From Acidobacteriota bacterium (GTDB taxonomy: Bacteria; Acidobacteriota; UBA890; WLXD01): a stretch of 64,000 nt of DNA. The stretch is from the NCBI GenBank assembly GCA_965248695.1, contig CBDFKD010000002.1, forward strand, positions 1,920,001 to 1,984,000, read 5' to 3'. Under the pieces are notes generated by a model. It made no database searches. It was given only the letters and a program-made list of their open reading frames with translations, and was not told where the DNA came from. The position numbers and the translations under genes were made by a program. Of the stretch, positions 13,352-45,549 are shown piece after piece (positions within the stretch are counted from its first letter, which is position 1; every line of letters begins with the position of its first letter).

Positions 13352-13545
13352 ACGCAGCCTCTGCGCCCGCGGGCGCAAGCAAGGCACCGCGCCGGGCCGC
13401 CGACCCGGGACGCGCTCCGATGCGAAATTCTCGACGAAAACCGTGGCTCCGGGCTCCTATCTGTTGAGAACGCGTTGTGCCCGGGCGCGGGAGCGTTCGG
13501 TGGGCCTGCGCTCGGGTGCTACGCGCTCCTGAACGGGAGCCGGAA

Positions 13546-14928
13546 TTGACGTACCGACCGATACCGCGAGCCGCCACCCTGGCGTCGCTCGTAACGCTGC
13601 TCGCAGTGGCAACGCTCCCCGGGGGGGCCTCCCCCGCCGTCGGGGCGACCGGGGTGCCAGTTCCACAGATGGCTCCGGCAGAGGCGGCACGGCTCGAGCT
13701 CGACGTACTGATCGACACGTACGAGGAGCTCTCAGAGGCGCCGCAACGGCGCGCCGATCTCGGCTGCCGCGACCTGCGATCAGAGCGCTGTCAGATCAAC
13801 CTGGGCCGGGTGGGGGCCCTCTATGTGGAGCTGCTCACCCGAATACGGGCGGTGGCGCGGCACGAGCTCAGTCCAGCAGGGCGGATCGACCTTGATGTGC
13901 TGCAGTGGCGCGCGCAGCTGGCAGTAGCACGGTATCTCGACCCCGATTCCAACGGTTTCGACGAGGTCGGGTACGCGACACACATCCTGCGGCACACCGG
14001 ACAGGCGCTCGACCCCGGCGAGCTGCACGAGCTCGGACGTCGTGAGATCGAGCGTATCCGTCAGGCGATGATGGACCTCGTCGCGGCACAGAAGCCAGAT
14101 GCCGACCTGGACGCGTTCATCGAGGCGGCGCGAACCGACGATCGGCTCTACGCCGGCTCGCGTCAGGAGCTCCGGTCCATCGCCCGCGGGATCGCGGCGC
14201 GCATCGATCAGCAACTCGATACCGTGTTCAACCGATTGCCGGACATCCCGTACAGCATCGAGCTGCTATAGCGGGGGCAGCGCGGGTTCATGGCCCAGTA
14301 CCGCCGCGGCAACGAAGGCCTTCGTGGCCGATCCACCGGCTACGTGCTGCTGAATGCTGATCCGCGCCAAGTTCCGCTGTTCGTGCTCGAGGCGCTCCTG
14401 TTACACGAAGCGATGCCAGGCCACCACCTGCAGATGTCGTGGAACACAGGACACGATGACGACTCCGCCTGGCGCCGCCGAACCAGCGTGACCGCCTTCG
14501 TCGAAGGGTGGGGACTCTATGCCGAGAGCCTCGGTGTGGATCTCGGGGTGTACCGCCACCCGATGACCGAGTTTGGCCGTCTGAACCTGGAAATGTGGCG
14601 TGCCATCCGACTGGTGGTGGATACCGGTCTGCATGCCTTCGACTGGGATCGTCGCCAGGGCGAAGAGCTATTTCGCCGGCACACGGCGCTACCGATCGAG
14701 CAGATCCGGGTCGAGGTTCGCCGCTATCAAGACAATCCGGGACAGGCGGTCGCCTACAAGGTGGGCGAGTTGAAGTTTCTCGAGCTCCGGGCGCGCGCCG
14801 AAAAGGCGCTCGGAGCGAGCTTCGACCTCGCTGCGTTCCACGACGCCGTGCTGACGCACGGCCCCATCCCGCTGCAATCGCTCGACGACCAGGTCGATAC
14901 CTGGCTGACCGCCGCCCAGGGAAGCTAG
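13546..14928 (+). pseudogene. DUF885-family secreted metallopeptidase-like gene, interrupted by an in-frame TAG at 14269-14271
   Basis: ORFs 13477-14271 and 14290-14928 share one frame; HEAMPGHHLQ, FVEGWGLYAE, RLVVDTGLH, PGQAVAYKVG, FHDAVL motifs; N-terminal domain looks short; start codon uncertain. Confidence 0.8.
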
Positions 14929-24889: not shown

Positions 24890-27097
24890 ATGGCCTCCCT
24901 CCCCTGCCTGACGATGACGATCGCCATTGGCGCGCCGCGCGCGCTCCTGACGCCGGGCTCCTCCTCGATCCACCTCGCCGTGGTCGGCCTAGTGTTGACG
25001 CTCGTCGCCGCGCCAGCCGGCGCGCAGTCGTCCTCCCGTACGCTGGAGGCTCTGGTCATCGACGAACCGGTAGCGCTCGATGGGCACCTCGACGAGCCGT
25101 TCTGGCAACTCGCGGAGACGGCCACCGGTTTCGAGCAGCGCAATCCCGACACCGGGCAGCCTGCAAACGAGCGCACCGAAGTGCGAATCGCACGCGATAG
25201 CAACCGTCTCTATGTCGCCGTGATGGCCTTCCACGACGACCCCGGAACGATCGTCGCCAAGGAGCTACAGCGCGACGGCTCGGGCTCGTTCGGCGGCTTC
25301 CGGGGCGCCCAGGGCGCCTACGGCAACGACGACTCGATCGTCATCGTCCTCGACACTTTCCTCGACCGGCGCAATGCCTTCTATTTCGAGACCAACCCCA
25401 ACGGCGCCCGCGCCGATGCGCTGATCGAGAACGAGGACAACCCCAACTTCGAGTGGGACGGCGTCTGGGACGCCGCTGCCACACGCACGCCCGAGGGGTG
25501 GAGCGCCGAGCTCTCGATTCCGTTCTCCACCCTGCGGTTCGATCCCGGCACCGACACCTGGGGCTTGAACCTCCGCCGGCTCGTCCGGGCCACCAATGAA
25601 GAGGTTCTGTGGGCCCCGGTAGGACGCGACGCCAACCTGCCGCGCATGTCCTTGGCCGGCGACCTCACCGGCATGGGGGGCCTCGAGCCAGGCGTTAACG
25701 TGCGCGCCAAGCCTTTCGGCGTCGCCACCAGCGGACGCGATTTCGAGACCCCGGCCGACAGTCAAGGCGAGCAGTTCGACGGCGGCCTCGACCTGCTGCG
25801 CTGGGGCGTCAGCAACAGCATGACGCTCGACCTCACCGCCAACACCGACTTCGCCCAGGCGGAAGCCGATGACGAGCGCATAAACCTCACCCGGTTCTCA
25901 CTCTTCTTCCCCGAAAAGCGCGAGTTCTTCCTGGAGAACGCCGGGATCTTCGGTTTCGGTCCCAATCAGGGCCGGGGTGGCGGCATGCGCGGACCATCGC
26001 TGCAGATGTTCTTCTCGCGGCGCATCGGCCTCGATCAAGGCGGCATCATCCCGTTGCAGGCGGGAGCCCGCTTTACCGGTCGGGCCGGAGGCTGGAACTT
26101 CGGGATGCTCGACGTACAGACCAGCGCGGTCAGCGGTCTCGGCGACGACGGCGACATCGACGTGGCGGCGACCAACTGGGGCGTCGGGCGCATCAAACGC
26201 AACGTTGGCGAACGCTCCAGCATCGGCGCGATCTTCACCAACAAGCAGGTCAGCGGCGACGAATGGAACCGCGTCGTCGGCTTCGACGCCGACATCAACC
26301 CCTCGCGTCAGGTAAACCTCACCGGGTTCTTCGCCGCTAGCCGCGACAAAGCAACAGGGGTCGATACAGTCACCGATTGGGCCGGCGGCGCCGGCTTCAA
26401 CTACCGCGGTCGAATATGGCGGGCGCGCGCCAGCGTCAGCGAGATCGGCGAGAACTTCCGACCGGAGATGGGATTATTGCAGCGCGGCGGAGTCCGCCGC
26501 TACGACTACAATGTCGACTTCGAGCCGCGACCAGCGAACAACCTCGGCTGGCGCAACCTGACGTTCAATCAGCGGACATCGATGGTCACACGGTCGGATG
26601 GCACGGTCGAGTCCGTTGACGCGACCGTGCGATTCTTCGGCTTCGAGACCCGTGCCGGCGACCGCATCTCGTTATTCGCCAGCCACAACTTCGAGCGGCT
26701 CTTCGAGGAGTTCGAGATCCAGGATGGAATCATCATCCCGGCCGGCGACTACAGTTTTAACGATGTCGGCGTGTTCCTGCGCATCGACGGTAGCCGGTCG
26801 GTCTCGTTTTTCGGCTTCTACACCAAAGGTGCATTCTTCGGCGGCACGCGCCTCATGGGCAACAGTACGCTGACCCTGCGCCTGAGCAAGTTGCTGTCGG
26901 CCGAGAGCGTCTGGAGCTACAACTACGTCGACCTTCCCGCCGGCTCCTTCAAGGCCAGCGTCCAAACAGTGTACAACAGCGACCAGACAACGGGGAAGCT
27001 CAAGACCACCGCCACCCCGACCGAAATCAACCGGATTGGTCGAGATGAGCTCATCAGGTACCCGCATCCTGGTGGATCAGCGCTGTCCGTTGCCTAG
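24890..27097 (+). pseudogene. DUF5916-type outer-membrane protein (CBM9-like N-domain plus beta-barrel), truncated by an inversion; the last ~44 aa are out of context
   Basis: Signal peptide, LDGHLDEPFW, WSAELSIPFSTLRF, NTDFAQAEAD, RFSLFFPEKREFFLE, FFSRRIG; barrel-like sequence stops at ...SFKASV (26962). Confidence 0.85.
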
Positions 27098-27460
27098 TGT
27101 CGTGCGAGCTCTCGTAGCTCGGGGCACACACCCAGGGCTAGGTCACTGGGGCCGGCGACGTAGATAGCGTACTGCGTCGCGCACACATTCGGACCTACCC
27201 ACGTGGCGGTGTGTCTCAGCGACGGCGCGGAACCTAGAGCATCAGCAGGTAGGTGAACTTCAGGATGATCGCGCGGTTCTTCGGTCGGCTCGGCGTGCCG
27301 GTGCCCCAGTCCTGGTTGTAGACCAGGAACAGGTCGGCGCCGGGTCGGTAGATCCAGTTGAGGCGCGAGTTCAAAGTCAGCAGATCGACCGAGCTGTTGT
27401 ACTGCACCAGCGTGTTCCAGAACAGGTCGGGTGAGAACGCCAGCTTGATGCGCTCGCGCA
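26964..27460. other. Inverted 497-bp segment carrying the 3' end of the DUF5916 gene and the 5' end of the next gene
   Basis: Reverse-complementing this interval restores both reading frames (see findings). Confidence 0.9.
27234..27460 (-). pseudogene. Displaced C-terminus of the DUF5916 protein
   Basis: (L)RERIKLAFSPDLFWNTLVQYNSSVDLLTLNSRLNWIYRPGADLFLVYNQDWGTGTPSRPKNRAIILKFTYLLML*, alternating beta-strands typical of a barrel C-terminus. Confidence 0.9.
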
Positions 27461-28863
27461 GCTCTGCTGGCGAGCGTCTCTCGTTGGAGCACGAATTCGG
27501 ACTCGCTCGCGGCGCGGCGATCGGCGCCGATACTTGGTCCTATGAACTTCTCGATCCGACGCCGAAGACTCTTCGGGCTTTGGTGAGGCACCCATCTGTC
27601 GAGGACACACACGGGTTCGACCGAGCCTCTCCGAGCCCGCTGGCGCACGGACCGAACGTCCCGGGTCGATCGCTCGTAGTCACGCTGTTGCTTTGGAGCT
27701 CCGCATTCGTGGGTTTCCACATGATTCGACTCGCTACCGTTCGGTACCCGCCGGAACGCAAGACAAATGGAAACGTGGCTCGCAGCTTCGTCGACATTGC
27801 TGCCGTAGGCTGGCGTGCCGCGCAAAGGCGGCGGGCCTTCATACTGAACGTCGCTGTATGGATCGTTTCAGTCGCGATTGTCGGGTCCATCGGTTGGTCG
27901 TCGCGGTCGCCGTTGCCGAGCGCATGGCCCGGGCGACGGTTCGGGTATCGCGTGACGACGGTGCAGACAATGAGGTTCACGACGATCCTGCCCGCGGATC
28001 AAAGGATCTTCGTTCCCGACAACGACATGCATCAGGTCGCCGTCTCCCCGGACGGAACCCATCTGGTGTATGGGGCCAATCGTCAACCGCGCGTTCGAGC
28101 TCTCTACGACGACACAGCCGTGCCGCTCACGGCGATCGAAGGGGGTCGAGGGTTCCTTTTCTCCCCGGACGGGAAGTGGATCGCTCTCTGGCGGGGGGGA
28201 GAGCTGACGAGAGTCGCCGTTGCCGGCGGTCCTGCGACCGTGTTGTGCTCTGCCGAGACCATGCTCGGGGCGACGTAGAGCGACGACGACACGATTCTCT
28301 TCGCGCAGTCCGCAGGTATCATGCGCGTCTCGAGCAACGGGGGCGCGCCCGAGTTGCTCGTGCCGGTCGTTGATGGGGAGCAAATGCGCCAACCGCAAAT
28401 GCTCCCCGAAGGTCAAACGCTCCTCTTCACTCTTCTTCCGGCCGGATCAACTTGGAGCAACGCACAAACCGTGGTGCAATCGCTCGATACCGGTGAGCGA
28501 CTCATTCTGTTCGAGGGGTTGGACACCCGCTACGTTGCGTCCGGGCACCTAGCGTACGTGCACGACGGGTCCCTGTTTGCCGTTCCGTTCGATGCCGACC
28601 GATTGGTTCTCACCGGAAGCCCGACGGTCCTCGTCGACCGGATAGTATGGAGTACTGAAACTGGGGCGGCCATGTTTGCGGTGTCGGACGCCGGCATCCT
28701 TGCGTATGCGCGCGGCGAGTCAGGCTCGACTCACCATTCTCTGGGCGGAGTCCAAGGTGGTGGCAATGAGGAGGCACTCGACTCGTCGCCAGGCGAGCTT
28801 GAACCGCCCGATGCGATTCATTTCGTGTTGAACTGGACTTCGGTTCTCCAGAATCGGGAGTAG
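27461..28863 (+). pseudogene. Membrane protein with PD40/TolB-like propeller; 5' end displaced by the inversion, in-frame TAG at 28276-28278
   Basis: VAVSPDGTHLVY, FSPDGKWIA, GAT*SDDDTILFA (Trp position), C-terminal IHFVLNW; ORFs 27358-28278 and 28321-28863 share one frame. Confidence 0.75.
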
Positions 28864-28911: not shown

Positions 28912-29733
28912 ATGCAAGATGCGATGCCGCAAGTAAGACAATTGCTTCTCGTTCCCATTGCCCTCTTTGCGGCCCTGTCCGCCCTTCTTGTTCTGCACGC
29001 TCCCTCGAGAGCCTACGTCTACAGAGAGCTCAGCTATCAGCTCATTGCCGACAGATTCGGCTCGGCAGAGGACGTGCGGCAATTCGTTTACGAAAACGCC
29101 TCGTACGAAAAGGCCAGTCAAGCGTGGCCGATGGACAGCGAGGTCGTTGTGTACTCCGACTCCTGGTACTACTTCGAGCGCGGCATGGCGTGGTGTGACC
29201 AGGTATCTGTGGCGATGGGAACGTTGCTGGCGAAGAAAGGTGCCGAGTCCGTCGTCACCTACTACATCGACAAGGAAACAGGGGTTTCCCCTCATACGAT
29301 CTTGTTCCAGTTGGCGAGTAATGAAGAAGACCAAGCGGTTTCCGGTTGGTATGACCCGTTGGTGGAGAAGGGGCTACTTCTTCCGTTGGAAGGCTATGAC
29401 CTCAGACCTGTCATGAATATCGACTCCACATGGATCGACGACGCAACCGGTCTCATTCCTCACAGCTTCATCTACCTGTACCAGGACTTCTATCTCTGGA
29501 TGCTTGGGCCGCAGGCTCCTAGCCTGACCGACTCGACGAGACACCACGGCCCGCCGAAGATGGAGTCCGACCCGGAGCTCGTGTTGTATTACAAAGCTAG
29601 GAACTACCAGCTATACGGCAGAATGAGGAAGGCTCAGCAGTACTACGAGCTACTCGCTCCTGGCGAGCTGGCCCGTCGGATACATGCCATGATGCCTACC
29701 GCTGACAGTCCTCCAGACGAAAGTAGTATGTGA
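28912..29733 (+). CDS. Hypothetical exported protein, possible transglutaminase-like Cys-His-Asp fold
   Basis: Signal/TM N-terminus; AWCDQ...PHT...WYDP spacing; visibly lower GC than its neighbours. Confidence 0.55.
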   Translation: MQDAMPQVRQLLLVPIALFAALSALLVLHAPSRAYVYRELSYQLIADRFGSAEDVRQFVYENASYEKASQAWPMDSEVVVYSDSWYYFERGMAWCDQVSVAMGTLLAKKGAESVVTYYIDKETGVSPHTILFQLASNEEDQAVSGWYDPLVEKGLLLPLEGYDLRPVMNIDSTWIDDATGLIPHSFIYLYQDFYLWMLGPQAPSLTDSTRHHGPPKMESDPELVLYYKARNYQLYGRMRKAQQYYELLAPGELARRIHAMMPTADSPPDESSM

Positions 29734-29769: not shown

Positions 29770-30549
29770 CTATGCGAGACGGGGCGGCAGGTGGATGATG
29801 AACTCGATGCGCGGCTGGATGAGCACGTTGTAGGGGTCACCCTGCTCCGCCAGCGGCACGACGCCGAGACGATCCAGCAGGTCGAAGTGCGCTGATCGAC
29901 ATGTAGCCGTGGTCACCTGCATGCGTTCGTGCCACACGCTGTAGGCTCCCAGGTGACCGTCGCGGCGGTAGTAGTAGCCGCGCAGTGGGTGGGTCAGCAC
30001 CGTGAGCGCGGTGTCGCGGTCGGCGAAACCGGGAAAGTCTGATGCCACCGCGCCGTGATGATCGAGCTCGAGCTCGGCCGGCGCCCAGCCGCCGACGGTG
30101 GTCATGCGATACTGAGCGTAGGTGTCGTCGGTGTCGAGCTGGCAATCGAATTCGATGCGTCCCCAGTGCCAGGGCAAGCGCCACAGATAGCGCGGCACAT
30201 AGACGGTGAGCGAGTGCAGCGTCGTACCGAGAAACCAGGCGGAGCGCTCGCCGGTGTCGCGGTCGCGGACGTAGACACGATAGTTGGTCTGCGCGAAGCG
30301 GAAGCGCGGGGTCGGGAAGGCGGCGGCGCGGAAGTCGACGTCCTCGAACGGGACCACGGATACCAGTGCTCGCTCCTCGCCACCGAGGTGTACGCAATCG
30401 AGCTCGAAGCGCTCGTGCACCAGCGGGCGGAGTCGTGCCGGGTCGACGGCGTAGGTCACCACGGCAAAGTGCTGCAGTGTGGTGACGGCGTCGATGCCGC
30501 TGACTGCCGGGCGCGTGCTCCCCGCGGCAGGTTCCGAGTCACGCCTCAT
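29770..30549 (-). CDS. DUF2071 (YqjF-like) protein
   Basis: HFAVVTYAVDP..LRP, ALVSVVPF, QTNYRVYV, WFLG, LWRLPW; start overlaps the TerC stop. Confidence 0.75.
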   Translation of the reverse strand: MRRDSEPAAGSTRPAVSGIDAVTTLQHFAVVTYAVDPARLRPLVHERFELDCVHLGGEERALVSVVPFEDVDFRAAAFPTPRFRFAQTNYRVYVRDRDTGERSAWFLGTTLHSLTVYVPRYLWRLPWHWGRIEFDCQLDTDDTYAQYRMTTVGGWAPAELELDHHGAVASDFPGFADRDTALTVLTHPLRGYYYRRDGHLGAYSVWHERMQVTTATCRSAHFDLLDRLGVVPLAEQGDPYNVLIQPRIEFIIHLPPRLA

Positions 30550-31322
30550 GTCAGGTGAGTGCGCTCCGCCAGCAGCTTCTTCTGATAGCGACTCTGTACG
30601 ACATCGGTCAACACCAGCACCCCGATGACGAAGTAGAACGTCGTCTTGCTCATCGGCGTGACCTCGTTGCCGAGCAGCCGGAGGTGCGCCAGATGGCCGC
30701 CCTCCGACAACAGCATGATGCCGACCACGAAGAGAATGAACAGCCCCAGCACCTCGTACATGCGGTTGCGCTGCAGGAAGGTCGCGACGCTGTCGGCGAG
30801 CACGATCATCATCAGCCCGCCGATGACGATCGCCGTAGCCATGACCCAGAAGACGTCGGTGAGCGCCATGGCGCCCAGGATCGAGTCGAAGGAGAACACC
30901 AGGTTCATCGCCACGATCCACAGCACGACGGTGGCCAGCGGCCGCTCACCGCGCTCTTGGTGCTCCAGATCGTCGACTGCGACCATATGCAGAATCTCTT
31001 TGGTGGCGGTGTAGATGATGAAGGCGCCGCCGAGCAGCACGATGATGCTGTGGAAGTTGAGCTCGGCCTCGACCCATCCGCTGCGCTGCAGGCTGAGGAT
31101 GGGCGCCTGGAAAACACGGATCATGCTGGTCAGCGCGAACAGCAGAACGATGCGCAGCAGGATGGCGATGCCGATACCCCAGCGTCGAACCGACGCCCGA
31201 CGGCCGGCAGGCGCCCGCTTCGACTCGAGAGCGATGTACAGCATGTTGTCGAAACCCAGCACGCCCTGAAGCAGGGTCAACAGCCCCAGGGTCACGAGGT
31301 TCTCGAGGCTGAAGATCTCCAT
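30546..31322 (-). CDS. TerC-family integral membrane protein
   Basis: VLGFDN, NLVFSFDSIL motifs; about 7 TM segments. Confidence 0.9.
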   Translation of the reverse strand: MEIFSLENLVTLGLLTLLQGVLGFDNMLYIALESKRAPAGRRASVRRWGIGIAILLRIVLLFALTSMIRVFQAPILSLQRSGWVEAELNFHSIIVLLGGAFIIYTATKEILHMVAVDDLEHQERGERPLATVVLWIVAMNLVFSFDSILGAMALTDVFWVMATAIVIGGLMMIVLADSVATFLQRNRMYEVLGLFILFVVGIMLLSEGGHLAHLRLLGNEVTPMSKTTFYFVIGVLVLTDVVQSRYQKKLLAERTHLT

Positions 31323-43524: not shown

Positions 43525-44289
43525 GGGCACTCCGGTGCTTCGAGAGCTTGGTTGGCTCATCCGTGATGGGTTGCGGATCGTGAACCGCAGCGTCTAGATT
43601 GCTACGCCCGCTGCCGAAGGTCCAATCGCATCAAGCCGTAACCGGGGGGGGAATCGTGTTCTTCGCCGCCCGATCACCTCAGCGCGCGAAGACAGGTGGC
43701 GTCCGCTCAGACCATGGCCGGGCCTCTTCGAGCTCGTACGCGAGCTCCAGGAGCGTTCGCTCGGCACCACGCCAGGCAGAGAACTGCACCCCGACGGGCA
43801 GCTCGTCCGTGGTCCGGTGCAGCGGGACCGACATTCCCGGCATGCCGGTAGCGTTCTGCAACGGCGTGTAGGCCACCGCGTCGAGCACGCGCTCGAGGGG
43901 CCCAGAACCCGATGAACGCGTCGATGAATTCCTCACCGGGCAGCGGAAGGGCGACCTCTTCGACTTCATGCCCCAGCTGCTCGCATAGTGTCGCCGCGTC
44001 CCTGACGCCCTGCTCCACCTCCGGATGCGGCGCAACGCCGTGGAAGGACTCGGTCATCAGCGCAACCCGGAGGCGATGGGAACGATGCCCGCCGCTACCG
44101 CAGCGGCCCGAGCCGCCACTGGAGCCACCGGGCGAGTATTCGAGATTCCACGGGTTATGCGTTGGTCCGTGCAGGATCGGCTCGGTGGTGTCGATGAGCC
44201 CGAACTCCGGTGAGTTTGTGACGCCTGTAACGATCATTCCAGAAGCCTCCATCGCTGCGATCAGCCGCGAGGTTTCCTCTGGCGGCAGG

Positions 44290-45549
44290 TGACCTGACCC
44301 CCGAAAACGGATCCGGATGTAATCTCACGATCTGGGTCAAGAACGGGAGGTCAGAATGCCGAGTAAGAGGCACAGCGCCGAGCAGATCGTACGCAAGCTC
44401 CGGGAGGCTGAGGTGGAGCTGGCTCGAGGGGCGACGGTCAAGGATGCCTGCCGCAAGCTAGCAATCACCGAGCACACCTACTACCGGTGGCGGCGAGAGT
44501 ACGGCGGACTGAAGCTCAACCAGGCCAGAAAGCTCAAGCAACTGGAGAAGGAGAATGCCCGGCTCAAGAGGCTGGTGGCGGAAAAGGAACTCGACCTGTC
44601 GATCCTGAAGGAAGTGGCGGAGGGAAACTTCTGAGCCCAGCTCGGCGGCGAGAGGCGGTGGCACATGTACGGGGGCGGCTGGGCGTCTCGGAGAGGCGGG
44701 CGTGTCGGGTACTGAAACAACCACGCACGACACACCGGTACGTGCCAAGAGAGCCGCAACAGGAGCAGATTTTGACGGAGCGGATCGTGGATTTAGCCCG
44801 ACAGTACGGGCGCTACGGATATCGGAGGGTGACAGCGTTGCTGCGCATGGAGGGCTGGTCCGTGAACCACAAACGAGTGCAGCGTATCTGGCGGCGCGAA
44901 GGGCTGAAAGTACCGAGAAAACAGCCCAAACGAGCACGGCTGTGGCTGAGCGATGGCTCCTGCATCCGGCTGCGCCCACAGCACCGGGATCATGTCTGGG
45001 CGTATGACTTCCTGCACCACCGGACGCACGACGGTCGGGCTATGAGGCTGCTGACGATCGTCGATGAGTACACACGAGAAAGCCTGGCGATCCATGTAGC
45101 ACGGAAGCTCAACTCTGAGGACGTGCTGGAGCAGCTCGGGAGGTTGTTCGTACACCGGGGCATACCTGAGCACATCCGGTCGGATAACGGACCAGAGTTC
45201 ACCGCCGAGGCGGTTCGCGACTGGCTGGGCCGGTTGGGCGTGGGGACGCTGTTCATCGAGCCGGGCTCGCCGTGGGAGAACGGTTACGTGGAGAGCTTCA
45301 ACGGCAAGCTACGCGACGAGCTGCTGGATGGAGAGATCTTCTACACGCTCAAGGAGGCAAAGGTTCTGATCGAGAGATGGCGTCAGCACTACAACCGCAT
45401 GCGACCGCACAGCTCGCTGAGCTATCGGCCGCCCGCACCCGAAGCGACGTTGTTGAAGCCGGCTGCGCTCCGCTTCGCCGGCCTCAACAACCTCTTGTCA
45501 GCACCGAGTTACTGAGATAAGACATGGTACTAACCGCGGGGTCAGGTCA
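44290..45549 (+). mobile_element. IS3-family insertion sequence (IS407-group-like), 1260 bp
   Basis: Ends TGACCTGACCCC...GGGGTCAGGTCA; 4-bp target duplication CAGG (44286-44289 / 45550-45553). Confidence 0.95.
44356..45515 (+). CDS. IS3 transposase OrfA/OrfB joined by a -1 programmed frameshift
   Basis: OrfA HTH at 44356-44634; slippery G GGA AAC at 44622-44628 followed by a GCCCAGC/GCTGGGC stem; OrfB with WAYDF, SDNGPEF, ESFNGKLRDE (DDE). Confidence 0.93.

Follow-up and report, generated by a model that had tools for sequence, protein, structure and literature searches.

The DNA examined here is a stretch of 64,000 nucleotides from an Acidobacteriota bacterium (GenBank assembly GCA_965248695.1, contig CBDFKD010000002.1, positions 1,920,001 to 1,984,000 of the forward strand), which is referred to as the window and numbered from its first letter. 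It contains a gene of the DUF5916 family, an orphan membrane-protein gene that lies downstream on the same strand, and a 497-bp segment in inverted orientation that runs from the 3' part of the former gene into the 5' part of the latter. The plus-strand open reading frame (ORF) 24890-27097, encoding 735 residues, matches PF19313 (DUF5916) with 52.3 bits against a cut-off of 22.6 (E 5e-14), and the gene is 82% identical to its homologue P0002. Among 8000 candidates scored, 7652 homologues were found at E ≤ 0.001, and the lengths of the family members are approximately 710-800 residues. A full-text literature search for 'DUF5916' returned nothing, and no function is on record there.

Alignment with seven homologues (alignment A1) shows that the family resemblance of this ORF ends after ...GSFKASV at position 26962/26963, past which the frame continues as 44 unrelated residues and a stop codon. 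The missing C-terminus, 75 residues and a stop, is encoded on the minus strand of 27460-27234; its product, LRERIKLAFSP...KFTYLLML, aligns residue for residue with the C-termini of all seven aligned homologues, each of which crosses the joint without a break, reading ...GSFKASV and then (L/V)R(E/Q)R.... Scripted reverse-complementation of 26964-27460 yields a single open DUF5916 frame of 766 residues. The N-terminal part and the inverted tail together span the full length of the seven homologues, and the flipped protein aligns end-to-end with family members of 711-799 residues. The inversion boundaries are ambiguous by 1 bp (a C at 26963 and a G at 27461), and both junction 30-mers occur once in the genome. 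An initial annotation, made from the letters alone, had placed the loss of family-like sequence after 26963 and the true C-terminus on the opposite strand at 27460-27234, had noted the one-base C/G overlap, and had predicted an unbroken 766-residue ORF with full-length DUF5916 coverage upon flipping; translation, script and alignment reproduce each of these points, and the inversion as it was described is confirmed. The new 44-residue tail resembles the true C-terminus in YNS and a few more positions (21% identity in A1), a likeness that we take as chance.

The orientation of the segment was compared with that in related genomes, a check that the initial annotation had suggested. A match at E ≤ 1e-100 is present in 26 of the 31 related genomes searched (the genome under study, G000, is counted in both numbers), and the four remaining genomes of the genus each carry an uninterrupted DUF5916 orthologue with 79-91% protein identity. 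The DNA of these four congeners follows that of the window without rearrangement as far as 26961/26962 (79-89% identity), and directly after 26962 it matches window positions 27232-27460 on the opposite strand (88-94% identity). Downstream of the DUF5916 stop codon, the closest relative, G003, resumes at window position ~29780 and two further congeners, G001 and G002, at ~30530, while the corresponding DNA of the fourth, G004, has no match to the window; in the congeners the DUF5916 gene adjoins a DUF2071 remnant or TerC directly. Judging from these alignments, 26964-27233 and 27461 to ~29780 form an island that is absent from the congeners. Both the downstream partner gene and the spacer are missing in all four same-genus genomes, so that the same invertible architecture was not found in these relatives. 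Positions 26964-27233 have no second copy in the genome, and the 273-residue ORF at 28912-29733 was found in none of 30 relatives. No second copy of either orientation turned up among the JGI metagenome contigs searched with two k-mers: a 24-mer from inside the segment gave no matches, and a 21-mer from the left flank gave two, both in unrelated sequence. The features of the locus are collected in Table 1.

Table 1. Features at and around the inverted segment (positions in the window).
Feature	Position	Strand	Basis
DUF5916 gene, first 691 codons and one base: signal-like N-terminus, predicted CBM9-like domain and most of the outer-membrane beta-barrel	24890..26963	+	Pfam PF19313; identity to P0002; colinearity with seven homologues
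497-bp inverted segment, with a 1-bp ambiguity at the ends	26964..27460		Scripted flip; opposite-strand match of relatives
Unrelated 44-codon tail fused to the truncated DUF5916 ORF	26964..27097	+	ORF 24890-27097
Detached 5' end of the downstream gene: ATG and 30 codons, hydrophobic helix; now inside the 43-residue ORF 26923-27054	26964..27054	-	In frame with 27461 onward after the flip
Spacer between DUF5916 stop and downstream ATG in the un-inverted state	27055..27233	-	No match elsewhere in the genome or in the relatives' loci
Displaced DUF5916 C-terminus: 75 codons and stop, predicted last 4.5 barrel strands, ...KFTYLLML end	27234..27460	-	Translation; alignment A1
Downstream orphan gene, body: small N-domain (..HPSVEDTHGFD), membrane helices, start of PD40/TolB-like propeller	27461..28275	+	PD40 match, E 1e-4
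In-frame TAG where homologues have W	28276..28278	+	Read-through alignment, X at the stop
Rest of the propeller after the stop; ends ~280 residues short of homologues of ~900 residues	28279..28863	+	Query 192-443 aligns to 403-660 of a 940-residue frame
Orphan 273-residue ORF in the low-GC part of the island	28912..29733	+	No Pfam family; GC 0.55-0.57 vs 0.62-0.68 around
IS3-family insertion sequence (HTH_21, rve, rve_3) with terminal inverted repeats	44290-45549; transposase ORF 44487-45512	+	Pfam; ~17 kb from the inversion

The second gene touched by the inversion is recovered in part by the same operation. Flipped by the script, the segment brings a start codon (ATG at 27054) and 30 codons that include a hydrophobic stretch into frame with 27461 onward, as the initial annotation had claimed for a start codon and leader of the downstream protein. 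In a MAFFT alignment, a M..RP..R motif and the hydrophobic helix of this piece fall on the N-termini of G007 and G015, both distant homologues, and of a paralogue from the same genome, and the small domain that follows is 44-49% identical to the same three sequences. The claim that flipping restores both genes stands for DUF5916, which becomes whole, but only partly for the downstream gene: it regains its start and membrane helix, yet is not repaired because the in-frame TAG at 28276-28278 remains. Opposite this codon, W is found in all four homologues among the matches listed, and similarity continues past the stop. No close homologue of the downstream gene was found among 5.8 billion proteins in the length range of 168-536 residues; that search returned just the window's own protein and one partial match with 44% identity. 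The gene looks like a mosaic relic that combines the N-domain of one membrane-protein family with a partial propeller of another. An open frame of 912 residues in the same genome (G000:C2:958906-961641) shares the N-domain (..TW.YEL.DPT...LVRHPSVDDTH.FD), which is followed there by many hydrophobic stretches.

The effect of the lesion on the DUF5916 protein was considered on an AlphaFold model of the intact orthologue P0002 (pLDDT 81.9, pTM 0.80), which from about residue 380 to residue 752 consists wholly of strands. In this predicted model the joint corresponds to residues 682/683, inside the strand 676-692, and four more strands come after it. Foldseek searches with the model matched the N-terminal domain to CBM9 modules with a TMt of 0.68-0.74, and the rest to large outer-membrane barrels, among them LptD, TonB-dependent receptors and MtrB, with a probability of 1.00 and a TM score of only 0.28-0.35. 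A CBM9-like domain followed by a closed beta-barrel is accordingly a prediction for the orthologue, not for the broken gene of the window. The flipped protein resembles the DUF5916 (PF19313)/CBM9-barrel proteins in its end-to-end alignment with members and in the CBM9-like domain and large barrel modelled for the orthologue, whereas the gene as it stands in the window differs from them by the absence of the last 75 residues. In view of how such barrels assemble, the predicted loss of 4.5 strands together with the C-terminal end should prevent the closure of the DUF5916 barrel and lead to loss of function.

The presence of the inverted form in the sampled DNA was assessed in four sequencing runs (X1-X4) from one sample and one study, with contigs built separately from the k-mers of each run. 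The X1, X2 and X3 contigs each cover 26000-28500 as one record with 0 differences to the window; these records have 11,326, 6,882 and 5,531 bases and depths of 11.2, 3.8 and 3.03, respectively, the same as their flanks. The contigs of all three of these deep runs show only the inverted orientation, and the TAG at 28276-28278 is likewise found in them with 0 differences. Both junctions and the TAG are present in the sample DNA at consensus level, and since the spanning contigs show 0 differences, an assembler error or rare chimeras are ruled out. X4 yields short contigs with overlaps of 30 bases, whose ends are therefore branch points of the assembly graph. Seven of the eight X4 contig ends among those listed fall on GATC or GANTC, and loose ends begin or end with GATC; we take these to be the enzyme sites of a proximity-ligation library, which X4 presumably is. 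The depth of X4 was rejected as a gauge of two coexisting forms: its overlapping and ligation-chimeric contigs inflate the bins.

We consider it probable that the locus has undergone a recent, one-off, balanced inversion of 497 bp by illegitimate (repeat-independent) recombination, a lesion that inactivated the DUF5916 gene and decapitated a neighbour that was already dead. The ancestral order would have been the DUF5916 gene, a 179-bp spacer, and the strain-specific orphan membrane/PD40 gene. Two breaks, at 227 bp ahead of the stop codon of DUF5916 and at 30 codons into the neighbour, would have released a piece that was rejoined in reverse with at most 1 bp of overlap per joint; the DUF5916 protein would thereby lose its C-terminal end together with half of one strand and the four strands beyond it, and the neighbour its start and first helix. 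The joining might be due to an encoded Ku/LigD-like pair, a template switch during replication, or a topoisomerase-mediated exchange, among which the sequence cannot discriminate, and we infer that the event is not reversible. The genome encodes a Ku protein (C2:374041-374580, 155 bits) and, ~0.7 kb from it, an ATP-dependent ligase domain (C2:372776-373309) within an open frame of 870 residues that is LigD-like; together with the 1-bp overlap at the joints, this pair shows a capacity for end joining only, a pathway that may have made the joints.

The inverted tail shows no sign of decay, and the event is thus regarded as recent. In comparison with G003, the tail has 62 identical codons, 12 synonymous and 2 non-synonymous differences, as against 498, 130 and 62, respectively, in the rest of the DUF5916 gene. 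Of 187 columns with a conservation of 90% or more among 42 reference homologues, the flipped protein deviates at 5, and five close relatives deviate at 3-7.

Several observations weigh against such a one-off inversion, or at least against its simplest form. Inversions by illegitimate recombination, whether through Ku/LigD end joining, template switching or an exchange of topoisomerase subunits, as a rule gain or lose some bases; the present case is like them in the 0-1 bp overlap, the lack of a mobile element at the joints and the loss of function, and unlike them in that the DUF5916 joint is exact, so that a clean two-break inversion with nothing lost there is unusually tidy for end joining. 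The distant homologues of the downstream gene have ~14 more residues next to the right joint, where the likeness is weak. The claim that both junctions are exact, with no bases gained or lost, holds for the DUF5916 joint, for which alone the alignments show base-exactness; at the right joint a plain inversion is supported but not proven to the base, and a small in-frame loss may have occurred. The four runs share one sample and study, which may be the source of the assembly itself, and are not independent, and contigs drop rare variants, so that a minority in the other orientation could remain. Finally, the eighth of the X4 contig ends, at 26963/26934, coincides with the left junction to the base in the absence of a GATC or GANTC site, and the 30-mer at this break is unique in the genome. 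The break fits another continuation after 26963 in some X4 molecules, although the other branch is not among the matches listed. This would be expected if a sister strain with the intact gene coexists in the sample beside the inverted strain, a refinement of the one-off inversion that we regard as a possibility, albeit the less likely case. In its favour, the X4 contig left of the junction, which ends exactly at 26963 and not at a ligation site, differs from the window at 26476 (A>C, L to F) and at 26784 (T>C, I to T), and both replacements match homologues: F is found at the former site in 7 of 7 sequences of A1 and 46 of 46 of a second alignment (A2), and T at the latter in 7 of 7 of A1. However, the inverted joint is present without any difference in the next X4 contig (26934-27295), which is unbroken at 26964-26993 despite the inner sequence that two such strains would be expected to share, and the contig depths are too rough to apportion strains. 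In the sample, the inversion may be either fixed or still polymorphic. That chimeric molecules from library preparation or assembly produced the inverted form, one of the options of the initial annotation, is very improbable: small inversions with ~1 bp of overlap do resemble amplification chimeras, and all data come from one sample, but three runs each provide one contig over both joints at flank depth, random chimeras do not reach consensus, and two matched joints would be needed.

The initial annotation had also considered an ON/OFF switch on a surface protein. A study of intragenic inversions ('Intragenic DNA inversions expand bacterial coding capacity'; Chanin et al., PMC10028968) defines invertons by a pair of inverted repeats that is recognised by a site-specific recombinase, and includes intragenic and partly intergenic cases; the segment studied here is comparable to those described there in being a short inverted segment in or overlapping genes that places a premature stop in a surface-protein gene. 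Invertons have flanking inverted repeats, are flipped by a site-specific recombinase and usually occur in both orientations in one population, whereas here the repeats are at chance level, the genome search for two recombinase families places none in the window, the contigs of all three deep runs show one orientation, and the relatives lack the arrangement. The GCCAGC pair and, inside the segment, the GTACAACAGC pair, which the initial annotation had listed in the absence of long inverted repeats, both exist, but the best match between the junction windows is an offset 6-mer, and of 1000 position pairs drawn at random with a spacing of 497 bp, 75% score at least as well; for the internal 10-mer pair, this fraction is 22%. 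Repeats at the junctions do not exceed the chance level, and inverted repeats at the boundaries, by which invertons are recognised, are lacking. As a crossover site, the GCCAGC pair was rejected: it would shift the frame and fail to give the ...KASV(L/V)RER... of the homologues. A search of the genome for two recombinase families found 2 PF00239 (serine recombinase) and 13 PF00589 (tyrosine recombinase) matches, the nearest more than 200 kb away and none in the window, and the Pfam scans of window ORFs yielded housekeeping genes and an IS3-family transposase but no family of recombinases. The statement that the window encodes no site-specific recombinase holds for these two families, although a transposase of the DDE type, that of the IS3-family element (44487-45512), does lie there. 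With its right-hand site in a gene that is strain-specific and dead, the segment has no conserved switch architecture. A reversible switch that lacks canonical inverted repeats and depends on a recombinase encoded elsewhere is, in our view, improbable: the balanced inversion, exact at the DUF5916 joint as from site-specific recombination, the undamaged tail, the branch of the X4 contig chain at precisely the left junction, potentially the other orientation, and the distant recombinase-domain matches would suit it, but it is opposed by the repeats and the recombinase distances given above, by the intact orientation alone in four of four congeners, by the nature of the partner gene, and by the inverted form alone in the contigs of the deep runs. 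We give marginally less credence still to back-and-forth flipping that is independent of repeats and serves as a heritable ON/OFF control of the outer-membrane CBM9-barrel protein, with the X4 branch as the other orientation. A more complex event, in which two pieces of foreign DNA (26964-27233 and 27461 to ~29780) were introduced around an excised and flipped gene tail, is unlikely. Both flanking pieces are missing from all four congeners, part of the island has low GC, and the ~14 residues of the distant homologues are missing at the right joint, as such an event might leave them; however, it requires at least three breaks and foreign DNA instead of two breaks, and the in-frame joining of the pieces by a plain flip, with the start, the M..RP..R motif and the helix as in the homologues, would be a coincidence. 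Thus, of the options raised by the initial annotation, the one-off inversion is favoured by the evidence, and the switch and the chimera are not.

The event is of an ordinary kind that is unusually cleanly resolved: a small balanced inversion, resolved at the level of bases, whose ends bear neither repeats nor a mobile element, in the genome of a soil-type environmental bacterium with an ongoing burst of insertion sequences (IS). Such lesions are easily missed, as annotation pipelines report a shortened gene and stray ORFs, and scans for invertons that rely on inverted repeats would also overlook them. Only coexistence and interconversion of the two orientations would give the locus far greater importance; this is not shown by the present data, although they do not rule it out completely.

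The 1,260-bp IS3-family element is represented in the genome by 42 full copies with at least 99% identity and by 22 partial pieces, which constitute a recent IS burst. The copy in the window splits an amidase gene, pieces of which lie at 43679-44252 on the minus strand. The locus is similar to cases of IS-driven genome decay in the 42 near-identical IS3-family copies, the IS-split amidase gene, a split DUF885 gene and the nonsense codon in the orphan gene, but differs from them in that neither junction carries an IS copy or an IS end, the nearest copy being ~17 kb away. In this genus, the interval between the DUF5916 gene and TerC is a hot spot of gain and loss. The DUF2071 gene of the window (29770-30921, minus strand) is absent from G001 and G002, and G003 has only remnants of it, which match 29780-29912 and 30401 onward, with ~490 bp missing between overlapping matches. 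The DUF885 gene is divided into two plus-strand ORFs, 13477-14271 and 14290-14925, which cover profile positions 218-318 and 331-532 of 532, and is likely another pseudogene.

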